Positions 1 through 58,976 of a stretch of 64,000 nt of DNA are shown here, piece after piece; positions within the stretch are counted from its first letter, which is position 1, and every line of letters starts with the position of its first letter. The stretch is from assembly GCA_965112155.1 (NCBI GenBank), contig OZ218103.1. One strand, 5' to 3'. The translations under genes were made by a program, and so were the position numbers. The DNA comes from Podarcis liolepis. Lineage: Eukaryota. The notes below the pieces were generated by a model. It searched no databases, had not been told where the DNA came from, and was given only the letters and a program-made list of their open reading frames with translations.

Positions 1-50007
<50,007 letters not shown>

Positions 50008-54300: not shown

Positions 54301-56176
54301 CTTTGTGTAACGCAAAGCGCCATGCAAAATTGGTATTGCCGGTGAGCTTTTGGAAATGTCCTAACATCTGTCACTCATTACTAGCCTGTGTCTTACTGCC
54401 TATGTTTTCTCTCCCTCTGCACTCAGAGGTGAGGTGTCTCATTCTGTTGGACAGCAGAGACTGCAAGCAACACTTCCATGCTCTGTAATGCCCCTAAATG
54501 GGGCTGACTGGGTTGGTTCATCCCTTTGATGCGGTTACTCATTTGAATCTCTGTTGACTACATTGCTACACATCCCATCCAGAAGTTCATGCCCACTTGA
54601 GATGAACATGGGGAATTATATTGCTAATGCTAAGCTAGACAGACCAGTAGCCTGTCTACACCAGCCTTCCCCAACCTTGGGTTTCCAGAAGTCATTAAAC
54701 TACAACTCCCGTTGTCCTTGACCACTGGCCATTGCTGGCTAGGAATGATAGGAGTTGTAGTACAACAAGTTCTAGGGACCCAAGGCTGAGAAAGGCTGAT
54801 CTACAGTGATTTGCAGTGGCTCTCCAGGGTTTCAGGCGGGTGTCTCTCAACACTACCTGTAGATGCCCGGGATGGAACATTAGACCTTCTGCATGCAAAG
54901 CACAGAATTGTAGTGTTGGAAGAGACCCTGAGGATCATCTAGTCCAACCCCTTGCAATGCAAGAATATGCATTTGCTCTTATCACTGAGCTATGGCTCCT
55001 CCCCCAATGGGTTTGCCTTGAGAGTGATAGACTGGCTGCGTCATGTCTAAAGATGCCACTGTGTTCAGAAAATAAAAGCCTTTAAAATGGAAAAGGTGTT
55101 CTTATCTTGATCTCCACTGTTATCACCAACAACACTTGATCTCTCTCCTCCCTTGCATCCCCTTATTCCACCTTGCTGCTAACTGTGTGCCTTTTGCTGT
55201 TCTTTAGGTTTTGTTCCTCCTCCCTATCTTTGGAGTCAAATTTCCACTTTCTGTCCATCACACCACCCTGCTTCAATCCTCCTTAAAACCAGCCCCTCCC
55301 TTGAAATAATACATGACTGTGCAAAAATTATCTTCCTATAAGACTCTCTTCCCTTTTGCTCATATTTGGCCTTTAATTGCCCTTCTCCTTTTTAAAATAT
55401 TTATGTACTACAAGACTGTCCTAATAAAGGCTGCATGCTGCATATTTTAATGCAGGAAGACACTACCCTGAGCAAGGGAAGATTTGCAGCAGCAGCAGGG
55501 GCAGTAGCTATGGTAAATCAGATGTATTTTTGTGGAACAATCCTGCATTAACTCGTGCCTCTTACAAGATTTATGGTTTCCTTGCATAAGGCAAGAAAAA
55601 GACTATGGAACTATGGACACGGAGCTATGGAAAGGGGCTAGATCCTGTGCCTGCTTCCTTAGCACATTTCCCACCTTTAGCAAAGAAGACCCCAGAGTGG
55701 AGTGGGGGCAGGGGGAAGATGAGGAAAGATGCTTCATTTCAGTAAAGGATAGCAATTGATTCTTTCTAGCATAGCTAGCAGGTATGCTGACAAATAAGTA
55801 AAAAAACAGGCAAACACATAACTTGCCCTTTGCTTTCTTTCCGGGTTTGAGGGCCTGCTTTTGCATGGGTCTGTGATGAAAAAGGCACTTAAATTATACC
55901 ACTTCAAAGTGCAATAGTGAGGAGACGTATAACTCAATTACAACAACCACTACAGCAATTCTGATCATTCCTGTATTATGGCACAAGGATGGCACTGGTG
56001 TTCAATATACATATATCTTAACTACTTAAAATACTACCTTGGACATTTCAGGACCTTGCAGTACTTCACAGCCAAAGCCAGGGCCTCCCGGAATTCATGC
56101 TGGCGGCCAGGCACTGCCCCTAAGCCCCTGTCATCGTCTTGGTTTCCTGGGGAAAGAACAGTAAAATTTACCCAGT

Positions 56177-56232
<56 letters not shown>

Positions 56233-58976
56233 GTTTTCGTAGATTTTCACGGGTACAGGAATGCAGGTTTTGGTGTCCTCGGGTGTCTTCCCGTGTAAAA
56301 GTTGGGGTGTCTAGGCGACGTTTCGACGAGGTCTCACTCGTCATCTTCAGGCTGGTGCTTTCGGCTTCTTGTTACTGGAACAGAGCGGGATCTCAGTGTT
56401 TGAGTTCCTATAAATACTGTAGAGGGGTGTGGTGTATTGCCTCAAAAGTTCTGGGCAGAGGGGAAGTTCCCAGGCTAGTGTTCTTTTCTTCTTTTGTTCC
56501 TTAATTACTTGAGGGATATCTTGAGTGATTACTTGAGTGATATTCTGAGTACCACTTAGGTGGGTCATTGGGTGTGGATTAGTTGCTAAAGCCTTCGTGT
56601 CTTGACCTCTTGAATTTGTGAAGAGTTTTTCTGGGAAGATGGCTGTACTGCACTTAGTTGTGCTTTGGCTTGGCTTCGTGTATAGGGGCGAGCTGTGGTT
56701 TTGTGCCCTACAAGGGCACTACAGATAAAATTAGCACAGATAAAAATCAAGGGCACTACAGATAAAATTAGCAAAATCCTCCATAAACACAATATCAAAA
56801 CAGCCTTTTGCACCAACCAAAAAATAGCCAATATCCTCAGAAACCCCAAAGATAAAATCCAGTTGGAAAACCAAGGGGTCTATGAAATACCCTGCAAAGT
56901 CTGCCCAGCCACGTACATTGGACAAACAAACAGACGAATAAATGCACGTATCGCAGAACACAAGAATGCCGTCAAAAAAGAAGAAAAATCTTCCTCTCTT
57001 TTCCAACACATGAAAGAAACAGGACACGAAATTAATTTTGCAGATTCCAAATTGCTCTTTAACATGGAACATCACCACAAGAGAATAATCATGGAAGCCA
57101 TCGAGATAGAGAAACACCCTCACAACATGAACAAGCGTGACGACACGTCCCGCCTGCCAGACATCTGGAAATTAGCCCTCCCCACAAAAACCGACACCAG
57201 ATCCAGAGGCACACAGAACGCCACCACCAATCAACCACACCAGACCCAAACCCAGACCCTCTCCACAGATAAATTACAGACACCATCCAGTAACCAAACC
57301 ATAGTGGCACCTCCGGATGCTGCACCCCCCTGCAATCCCTACACAGATCTGGCTGGCACAGGGCACAAAACCACAGCTCGCCCCTATACACGAAGCCAAG
57401 CCAAAGCACAACTAAGTGCAGTACAGCCATCTTCCCAGAAAAACTCTTCACAAATTCAAGAGGTCAAGACACGAAGGCTTTAGCAACTAATCCACACCCA
57501 ATGACCCACCTAAGTGGTACTCAGAATATCACTCAAGTAATCACTCAAGATATCCCTCAAGTAATTAAGGAACAAAAGAAGAAAAGAACACTAGCCTGGG
57601 AACTTCCCCTCTGCCCAGAACTTTTGAGGCAATACACCACACCCCTCTACAGTATTTATAGGAACTCAAACACTGAGATCCCGCTCTGTTCCAGTAACAA
57701 GAAGCCGAAAGCACCAGCCTGAAGATGACGAGTGAGACCTCGTCGAAACGTCGCCTAGACACCCCAACTTTTACACGGGAAGACACCCGAGGACACCAAA
57801 ACCTGCATATATATATATATATATATATATATGTACCTTGGGTTACATACGCTTCAGGTTACAGACTCCGCTAACCCAGAAATAGTACCTCGGGTTAAGA
57901 ACTTTGCTTCAGGATGAGAACAGAAATCGTGCAGCGGCAGCGCAGCAGCAGCAGGCGGCCCCATTAGCTAAAGTGGTGCTTCAGGTTAAGAACAGTTTCT
58001 GGTTAAGAACAGACCTCCAGAACGAATTAAGTTCTTAACCCGAGGTACCACTGTATACACACACACACACACACACCAGTTGCAGGGGACAATAGTAGGA
58101 AATAGATGTCTACCATAAATGATACCTGCTGTCCTATATGTCAACTAAGTGCTCCTATGTTTGGGGTCAGGAAGAGGTGAGAGGTACAGAACAAACAGCT
58201 TTATTTGCTTGGTCTTTGGCAAGCAGAAGGGCAGTCTATAACCTCTACTAGGAATATCTTCGATTGAAACAACCACTGTTTTGAGTGTAAGGGAAAAGGT
58301 CATTCTAGGAGGCAGCAGGGCTTGGGGGGCAAGAAAATGGACCCATATCTTCTCTCCAAACCTGTGAAAGAGACATCCAGTGTACAGTGAAGTGAGAAGG
58401 AGGTGTTGGTCACTATCTTGGGTGCCAAGGTTGATACAGAGAAAGAGGAAAAGAGGTGATGCACTTTGCACCTGCAGGAACCGGTAGCAAGTTTCAACTG
58501 GTAACAGGTGAGATCTACAACTTTGTGTTTTTTTTAAAAAAGGTAAAAGCTGTACAGCAGCAGGCAGAAAAGAGATTTAGTGTTTCCAGAAAGCCGCAGA
58601 GACTATTAAGCTCTACCTGCTGACTTCTGCCTGCTTGCCTTTTCACCCTTTCCGTGAAAAGCCGACCCCGTTGTAGTAGTGCCTATGGAGGTCATGGGAG
58701 AAGGCTGGGTCCGGGTGGGGAGACCGTATTATGTCTGCGAGGGAAGGGCTCTAGCCACGGGCAACTCGGTCGGGTACCTGGCGGGGCGTTGAGCAGGACC
58801 AGCTCCAGCCTGGCCTTGTCTGCCGCCTCCCGCAGCTCCTCGGCGCTGCAAGCGTAAGGGGCGCCCAACTCCGCCGCTCGGAAGCCGGCCTGCGCAGCCG
58901 CCTCTATGCGCTGCGGCAGCGTCGGCTTCTCCTGGAAGAGCCACGCCAGGTTGGCAGCGAAGCGCAGCGGAGCCAT
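51243..58976 (-). CDS. HYI: HYI, putative hydroxypyruvate isomerase; complete 8-exon CDS, 831 nt, 276 aa
   Basis: [58 protein letters not shown]; Kozak context gccATGg; phases consistent. Confidence 0.96.
51512..51646 (-). CDS. HYI: HYI exon 7 (GC donor)
   Basis: [37 protein letters not shown]|gcaagt. Confidence 0.92.
51819..51888 (-). CDS. HYI: HYI exon 6
   Basis: [23 protein letters not shown]|gtaaga. Confidence 0.94.
52136..52185 (-). CDS. HYI: HYI exon 5
   Basis: [16 protein letters not shown]|gtgagt. Confidence 0.93.
52305..52578. mobile_element. Two adjacent short palindromic hAT-like MITEs (actacaactccc..gggagttgtagt family)
   Basis: Same family seen at about 1060-1165, 20190-20285, 24830-24940, 27070-27200, 54662-54800 and 61100-61180. 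Confidence 0.6.
52636..52714 (-). CDS. HYI: HYI exon 4
   Basis: [26 protein letters not shown]|gtaggc. Confidence 0.94.
53061..53175 (-). CDS. HYI: HYI exon 3
   Basis: [28 protein letters not shown]|gtaggg. Confidence 0.94.
53712..53830 (+). mobile_element. Sauria SINE 3' fragment
   Basis: gctggccacatgacc..ccctttaccttta. Confidence 0.8.
53838..54076 (-). mobile_element. tRNA-derived CORE-type SINE (Squam3-like)
   Basis: Minus strand gccagtgtggtgtagtggttaagagc (A box), gggttcg (B box), gtgaccttgggccagtcac CORE-like segment. Confidence 0.75.
54800..55000 (-). mobile_element. Squam2-like SINE interrupted by a CR1-type 3' end (about 54903-54965)
   Basis: Same SINE body as the 27540 copy, split by gttggaagagaccctgaggatcatctagtccaacccc. 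Confidence 0.6.
56038..56146 (-). CDS. HYI: HYI exon 2
   Basis: [30 protein letters not shown]|gtagta. Confidence 0.92.
56175..56232. repeat. (TG)n(TA)n microsatellite at the left PLE flank
   Basis: Seen directly; (TA)n at 57808-57832 and (CA)n at 58057-58076 on the other side. Confidence 0.95.
56311..56355 (-). ncRNA. Minimal type I hammerhead ribozyme motif (left arm, HYI pre-mRNA sense)
   Basis: Exact reverse-complement copy of the right-arm motif. Confidence 0.72.
57714..57758 (+). ncRNA. Minimal type I hammerhead ribozyme motif (PLE pLTR, right arm)
   Basis: CUGAAGA (57719-57725), U, helix II GACGAG/CUCGUC, GAAA, palindromic ACGU, predicted GUC cleavage after 57752. Confidence 0.72.
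57833..58053. mobile_element. Tigger-like MITE (same family as the 13827 copy, opposite orientation; left TIR clipped)
   Basis: GTACCTTGGGTTAC...AACCCGAGGTACCACTG-TA. Confidence 0.85.

Follow-up and report, generated by a model that had tools for sequence, protein, structure and literature searches.

The window, the whole 64,000-nt stretch of Podarcis liolepis DNA that was analysed, carries on its minus strand part of the HYI (hydroxypyruvate isomerase) gene. The 199-nt coding part of exon 1 (58778..58976), with its ATG and splice donor, and the 109-nt exon 2 (56038..56146) encode consecutive parts of the profile TIGR03234 (E-values of 1.4e-13 and 4e-6, the latter for profile positions 67-98) and are joined in frame. 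Splice sites define an intron 1 of 2,631 nt (56147-58777, minus strand) with an AG acceptor at 56147, and a later HYI exon is located at about 51.5 kb of the window. The whole insertion described here lies within this intron. As claimed in a first-pass annotation of the same DNA, 56261-56709 and 57360-57808 are exact reverse complements of 449 nt, with 0 mismatches, on either side of a 650-nt spacer, and the left arm has an extra tail of 28 nt. This tail (56233..56260, minus strand) is found at no other place in the window and continues the element's sequence, aligning with element positions +85..+112 counted from the ATG (the next A may be +113); ends of this type are called tailed below. The short inverted arm (56261..56709, minus strand), delimited by comparison of the arms, extends from +2598 of one unit to +84 of the next and contains, in HYI-sense orientation, the end of the ORF, the 3' UTR/pLTR and the start of the ORF. 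The long arm (56746..57808, plus strand) aligns with a 5'-truncated element that starts at +1984 and has a tail-less end at +84, and it carries the GIY-YIG endonuclease part (stop at 57483), the 3' UTR and the ATG at 57725. At the head-to-head junction, alignment reveals a templated insert of 36 nt (56710..56745, plus strand), which consists of two re-copied pieces from the first 27 nt of the long arm. A 7-bp hairpin is present at this joint, and the motif AGGGCAC occurs at both +1987 and +2598.

The GIY-YIG frame is indeed stop-free to 57483 (56686-57483), and its match to Pfam GIY-YIG is weak (E 5e-4, below the curated cut-off). The element-derived part of this frame begins only at 56746, the sequence upstream being junction insert and left-arm sequence, and the window copy holds only the endonuclease part of the element ORF. 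Because the arm includes the final 124 nt of the ORF and is only as long as the truncation point of the short copy allows, it is not a fixed pLTR. The earlier reading as inverted pLTRs with a short tail, a known insertion form of Penelope-like elements (PLEs), was therefore right about the form, which is described in PMC8557442 and PMC3846280, but not about the arm. Both ends of the insertion are located in (TA)n runs, of 19 nt and 26 nt. On the left, the target microsatellite (56175..56232) is a (TG)n stretch followed by (TA)n of 19 nt, and on the right it is a (TA)n run (57809..57832). An older MITE with a 20-nt inner inverted repeat, recognized by sequence and pattern search, occupies 57833..58053 and belongs to a family with about 14,000 exact pattern matches. 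Its left end, which adjoins the (TA)n flank of the PLE, lacks 5 nt (CAGTG/A) that are present in 12/12 other copies inspected.

A 571-nt endonuclease stretch of the element gave 893 candidates in the 1.57-Gb genome. The best 40 of these 893, which are not a random sample, were all 100% identical over the 571 nt, in line with the young family that had been proposed, and 40/40 scored copies (the best 40 of 536 candidates) were likewise identical to a 5' stretch of the element. The unit is 2,962 bp long, several matches being spaced by this distance in head-to-tail arrays. A genome search for full-length copies with both reverse transcriptase (RT) and endonuclease was also successful, since 2,962-bp arrays elsewhere in the genome hold an intact 906-aa ORF with RT and GIY-YIG (RVT_1, E 1e-15, over the cut-off; GIY-YIG, E 1.4e-3, under the cut-off). 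The element thus has the characteristics of endonuclease-positive PLEs, namely tandem or partial-tandem units that form pLTRs (in the arrays), a single ORF with RT and GIY-YIG (in the full copies), and an inverted 5'-truncated copy with a tail of 28-34 nt. It also has the sequence marks of the Penelope/Poseidon clade, a 16-residue stretch and no cysteine cluster upstream. Judged by these features, the element is a Poseidon-type PLE. Three to four degenerate 12-nt tandem repeats lie in its 3' UTR (window 56504-56550 and 57519-57565), and a subfamily of copies has an indel near +2886. Head-to-tail arrays of several near-identical full 2,962-bp units (L031-L035; G000:C1:22.499-22.515 Mb and 75.280-75.288 Mb) sit inside one head-to-head insertion that measures up to 16 kb; two units of one such array share the variant 987A, and copying of a multimeric or circular RNA is possible.

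Among named proteins, the closest is from Podarcis muralis (LOC144326219, P0001), which is 98% identical over 72% of the protein and represents the same family, although it is a gene-model fragment without a TE description. It is followed by proteins of Vipera latastei (82% over 53%) and Anolis carolinensis (45% over 85%). The V. latastei protein (P0002) is 82% identical over about 480 aa and much nearer than the anole element (45%); this is a high identity between a lacertid and a viper, and horizontal transfer between squamates may be involved. A PDB search with the element protein returned 4 distant RT matches only. Contigs that are 95-100% like the element were present in 4/4 public sequencing runs from three organisms, and we found no report of the family in lacertids in the open-access literature. 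A minimal hammerhead in the pLTR is a further feature of endonuclease-positive PLEs. Here, a core and a helix II were recognized by eye in a putative minimal hammerhead-like motif overlapping the ATG (57717..57754, plus strand), whose mirror copy, placed by eye and by symmetry with 57717-57754 (56315..56352, minus strand), would be sense in the HYI pre-mRNA. The candidate motif comprises a CUGAAGA core, a 6-bp helix II that is also seen in predicted folds, GAAA, a palindromic ACGU and a helix I of only 2 bp. An Rfam search gave 11 weak matches, all simple repeats or chance, and found no hammerhead. A hammerhead with the same placement over the ATG is described for PAc, the A. carolinensis element (PMC11167929).

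A genome-wide count of exact patterns joined to (TA)n gave 2,786 ends without and 3,086 ends with a tail. Within the first 35 Mb of contig C1, 87 inward-facing pairs account for 174 of the 199 listed ends, and the other 25 are without a partner in the lists. One tailed and one tail-less end were combined in 82 of the 87 position-ordered pairs, where half would be expected (p 3e-19), and the two ends were of the same type in 5. The end types were likewise mixed in 99/105 pairs at fetched loci, a set that overlaps the 35-Mb pairs and adds long copies picked by the first search and the window itself. Within pairs, the tail-less end is at +84, and the tailed end is at +113 (69 of 103) or at +118 (34 of 103). 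The end-pattern counts indicate about 2,800 inverted-repeat insertions genome-wide, the pairing being extrapolated from 35 Mb of one chromosome. Since the shorter arm measures at least 449 nt in 23/67 position-ordered mixed pairs, extrapolation gives several hundred to a thousand stems of at least this length in the genome, and many hundreds of stems thus equal the one at the HYI-intron locus.

A fold-back artefact of assembly or library preparation might be suspected, since artefacts often take the form of inverted repeats. Such an origin is nevertheless very improbable, because the short arm has 28 nt of true element sequence that are missing from the long arm, the same two end points recur thousands of times, and HYI exons 1 and 2 flank the insertion in order and in frame. 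Contigs of 4 public runs cover the junction (56711-56742) in 0/4 cases; as contigs drop rare variants and the repeat is high-copy, this result favours neither an artefact nor polymorphism. The insertion in HYI intron 1 is real, likely recent and ordinary for this genome.

A target-site duplication is unreadable in pure (TA)n, and an interrupted run at one locus (L059) fits 6-12 bp. The (TA)n flanks on the two sides of an insertion sum to a median of 59 nt. De novo synthesis of these flanks was considered but need not be assumed, given this sum and the existence of free (TA)n runs that measure 40-54 nt; among the first 10 runs listed, 4 lie away from listed element ends. Such synthesis may still have occurred, as a paralogous empty site was not found among the loci examined. 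The (TA)n runs at element ends are rarely shorter than 16 nt (median 29), which suggests that the target must have a certain length on either side of the cut. Nineteen clusters of two or three insertions share common (TA)n runs, with neighbours a median of 25 nt apart (L037, L041, L044-L046 and L049 among them), new copies landing in the flanks of old ones. In the one-armed copies L045, L051, L062 and L066 the 5'-truncated end runs straight into (TA)n, as in an ordinary target-primed insertion.

The two arms of an insertion are far more alike than arms of different insertions. They were identical over 400 nt in 33/43 long pairs, compared to 5.5% of 600 random cross-insertion draws, and family variants were found on both arms in 566 cases versus on one arm only in 9. 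The perfect arms in the HYI intron, noted in the first-pass annotation, are real, but the weight given to them was overstated in view of these 33/43 pairs and of the 23/67 shorter arms that reach at least 449 nt. The same-type pairs with arms of at least 200 nt (n = 4) look like composites, their arms differing by 2-9 events, and the arms of two short same-type pairs are identical over 100 nt. In insertion L058 the arms disagree at two family variants near the end. The HYI-intron copy differs from the reference unit at two positions, each on both arms and each found in other insertions, and has 0 private changes in 1,538 nt. After stricter margins had been applied, 18 private one-arm changes were counted in 2 x 49,538 nt (1.8e-4 per site), 7 of the 25 counted earlier being junction or indel alignment noise. 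A further 32 private changes are carried by both arms. The tail lies on the shorter arm in 62/99 insertions and on the longer arm in 29/99, the arms being equal in 8/99. The inner breakpoints are at most 30 nt apart in 51/99 insertions (shuffled mean 7.4, maximum 15), and these insertions, about half of the total, form near-perfect palindromes whose loop does not exceed 30 nt. Direct joints overlap by at least 2 nt in 43/61 cases (null 14%; the largest overlaps may be alignment over-run), and short inserts are present at the inner joint in 34/99. Of 198 inner breakpoints, 14 lie at a 5' truncation hot spot at +2921 and 10 more at +2922 to +2925. The hot spot is 42 nt before the ATG and is possibly a transcript start or processing site.

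Several of these observations would also be compatible with snap-back, in which one target-primed cDNA folds back and copies itself while the second target end gives only a short primed tail-side piece where the second strand lands. The near-perfect palindromes speak for this process, as do the tail-less arms that reach further 5' more often (62 vs 29), the 32 private changes present on both arms and the 7-bp hairpin at the joint of the HYI-intron insertion, and self-priming was proposed earlier in PMC3846280. However, the tail is mostly on the shorter arm (62/99) and hence was not copied from the tail-less arm, so that a simple one-cDNA fold-back cannot supply it. Snap-back, too, needs two priming events, and the only difference is what serves as template for the body of the second arm. 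A terminal mini-hairpin was rejected as a general junction rule, hairpins of at least 6 bp being present in only 3/44 large-loop joints (null 6%, p 0.25). Private changes on both arms can equally be source variants, as they have the same low-CpG spectrum as the family variants (CpG share 0/32 and 4/67, respectively), and the shorter and the longer arm have equal numbers of non-CpG one-arm changes (6 each). The error spectrum, tried as a test of snap-back, did not discriminate. All in all, we consider snap-back a possible but doubtful explanation. When the non-CpG one-arm changes are sorted by tail instead, 10 lie on the tailed and 2 on the tail-less arm, these being small numbers.

Identical arms with one-sided tails could also be accounted for by a single priming event, with the tail asymmetry arising later, when an endonuclease makes staggered cuts in a hairpin or tandem DNA intermediate (Craig et al. 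2021), an origin that is given as likely in PMC8557442. This seems quite unlikely for the present family: both end types match start sites that the RT of PAc uses in vitro (PMC11167929), both finish in A/T bases matching the (TA)n flank, and the tail can accompany the long arm as well as the short one.

How PLEs integrate is called an unsolved question in PMC8557442 and PMC11167929. According to the latter, PAc cleaves and extends both strands in vitro, prefers AT-rich DNA and is a predicted dimer. Its RT has two internal start sites that delimit the tail, located in a region 111-118 nt into the ORF, and uses them alike on both strands (PMC11167929). In the present family the tailed ends lie at aligned codons, about 3 nt from PAc +111..118, and the spacing from +84 to +113/+118 resembles that of the two in-vitro start sites of PAc. 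No stable structure was found at the start sites (z -1.03). The pairing of end types, the tail placement, the common haplotype of the two arms and the coincident breakpoints together point to one RNA and to priming by both target strands. In the sequence of events that we propose, the GIY-YIG endonuclease would nick both strands of (TA)n, and one or two A/T bases would pair each target 3' end with its start site. Reverse transcription would then be primed by both cut strands on a single element RNA, at +84 by one strand and at +113 by the other. The +84 copy would run to +1984 and re-copy the template end twice, giving the 36-nt insert, after which the two inner ends would be joined via the 7-nt microhomology and repaired. 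The body of the short arm may have been copied either from RNA or from the first cDNA, both of which fit equally. Alternatively, the arms could be identical because two transcripts of a single source locus were copied or because one arm converted the other.

All of this mechanism is deduced from end products. Taking identity and origin together, the HYI-intron insertion is probably a truncated, non-coding, head-to-head copy of a young Poseidon-type PLE in a (TA)n run, which would have been made by priming from both target strands on one RNA, at +84 and +113. We lean somewhat towards the broader proposal that PLEs integrate by an obligatory two-ended reaction, in which an RT-endonuclease dimer would prime both strands of a (TA)n target on one RNA. 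Its two subunits would each occupy a fixed site, 28-34 nt from the other, and both copies would extend to a common template end before being joined. What speaks against the one-of-each rule is that the start sites of PAc show no strand difference in vitro and that 5 of the 87 pairs are of the same type. The rule, the shared-haplotype test and the breakpoint coincidence were not found in the open-access literature (for PMC11167929, its text). If true, the two-ended rule would account at once for inverted repeats, one-sided tails and palindromes, and would have written about 2,800 near-perfect inverted repeats in this genome, roughly half of them with loops of at most 30 nt.

With a reptile substitution rate of 1-4e-9 per site per year, the 1.8e-4 one-arm changes per site give a mean insertion age of at most about 50,000-200,000 years. 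For the HYI-intron copy alone, zero changes bound the age only to about 0.5-2 million years, and polymorphism of this insertion is for that reason no more than plausible. It should be noted here that the family's intact ORFs, which are identical, and its rate of private changes (1.8e-4 per arm site) indicate youth only, not current activity.

The predicted fold of HYI intron 1 (-1437 kcal/mol) contains a long stem formed by the arms, which ends 114 nt from the exon 2 acceptor (56147), close to the approximately 115 nt given previously, and the tail ends 86 nt from it. Pairing is predicted to continue in the flanking (AU)n/(AC)n and to come within about 46 nt of the acceptor. Because the final 22 nt of the intron are unpaired in this fold, the insertion most likely has little effect on HYI splicing. 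A real regulatory effect, be it intron retention, exon 2 skipping, antisense or internal transcription from a pLTR, or hammerhead cleavage of the pre-mRNA, appears unlikely. What would favour such an effect is that the element makes up 60% of intron 1, that its predicted fold is so stable and reaches so near the acceptor, and that one pLTR faces exon 2 and the other exon 1, pLTR promoter activity being cited in PMC11167929. On the other hand, the acceptor, the pyrimidine tract and both exon frames are intact, and neither AATAAA nor ATTAAA is present within the element on the HYI strand. An in-frame element-HYI fusion was ruled out, as the ATG frame of the element stops at 56168 and is out of frame with exon 2. 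Minimal hammerheads cleave poorly alone (PMC4209133), and the candidate motif would be paired in the stem. Moreover, many hundreds of equal stems exist in the genome. Penelope is reported to be a massively edited repeat in lizard, with over 40,000 sites (PMC5625713), so ADAR likely edits the predicted stem of the HYI pre-mRNA as well, as one instance of a known phenomenon. In transgenic flies, siRNAs that match inverted regions of Penelope have been observed (PMC3681739).

The inverted layout, the ADAR editing of lizard Penelope and the fly inverted-repeat siRNAs are thus already published. Taken alone, the locus is of little importance, since it is a dead intronic copy of the usual kind. The family is of more interest, as it implies that a single vertebrate genome contains hundreds of long, perfect stems in introns. 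Its inverted repeats are a natural resource for studying PLE integration, palindrome stability and dsRNA handling in a vertebrate. This very young high-copy family also gives clean end products, which predict one start site per strand and one RNA per insertion. If copies are polymorphic, they are candidate presence/absence markers for wall lizards.

In L1 twin priming, both target strands prime on one RNA and the inner joint shows microhomology, but the second primer copies an upstream, non-overlapping part, which results in an inversion. The element described here is like L1 in its inner-joint microhomology and in the two-strand priming on one RNA that we propose. Unlike in L1, however, the starts lie within 30-34 nt, and the same sequence is present twice, as an inverted duplication. 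A known system that is closely comparable is PAc (Poseidon_Ac) of A. carolinensis (Frangieh et al. 2024, PMC11167929), which shares a single ORF with RT and C-terminal GIY-YIG, tandem units, a hammerhead over the ATG (here a candidate motif), AT-rich targets, and two end points that bound the tail at the aligned place. The N-terminus of the anole protein (P0020; 45% identical over 773 aa) matches the translation of the PAc RNA in the methods of that paper. The present element differs from PAc in that it is a separate family (45% identity) with about 110 extra C-terminal residues and strict (TA)n targeting, and the pairing of one tailed with one tail-less end is not reported in the text of PMC11167929. 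Similar in layout are Pen2a_Av (PMC3846280) and the head-to-head form in the legend to Fig. 2 of PMC8557442, which have an inverted 5'-truncated copy, a tail of 30-40 nt that is often one-sided, microhomology junctions and a bias for microsatellites. In contrast to what these sources describe, the form is the rule here, with about 174/199 listed ends paired, and the tail is near-obligatory on exactly one end, whereas it is optional there.
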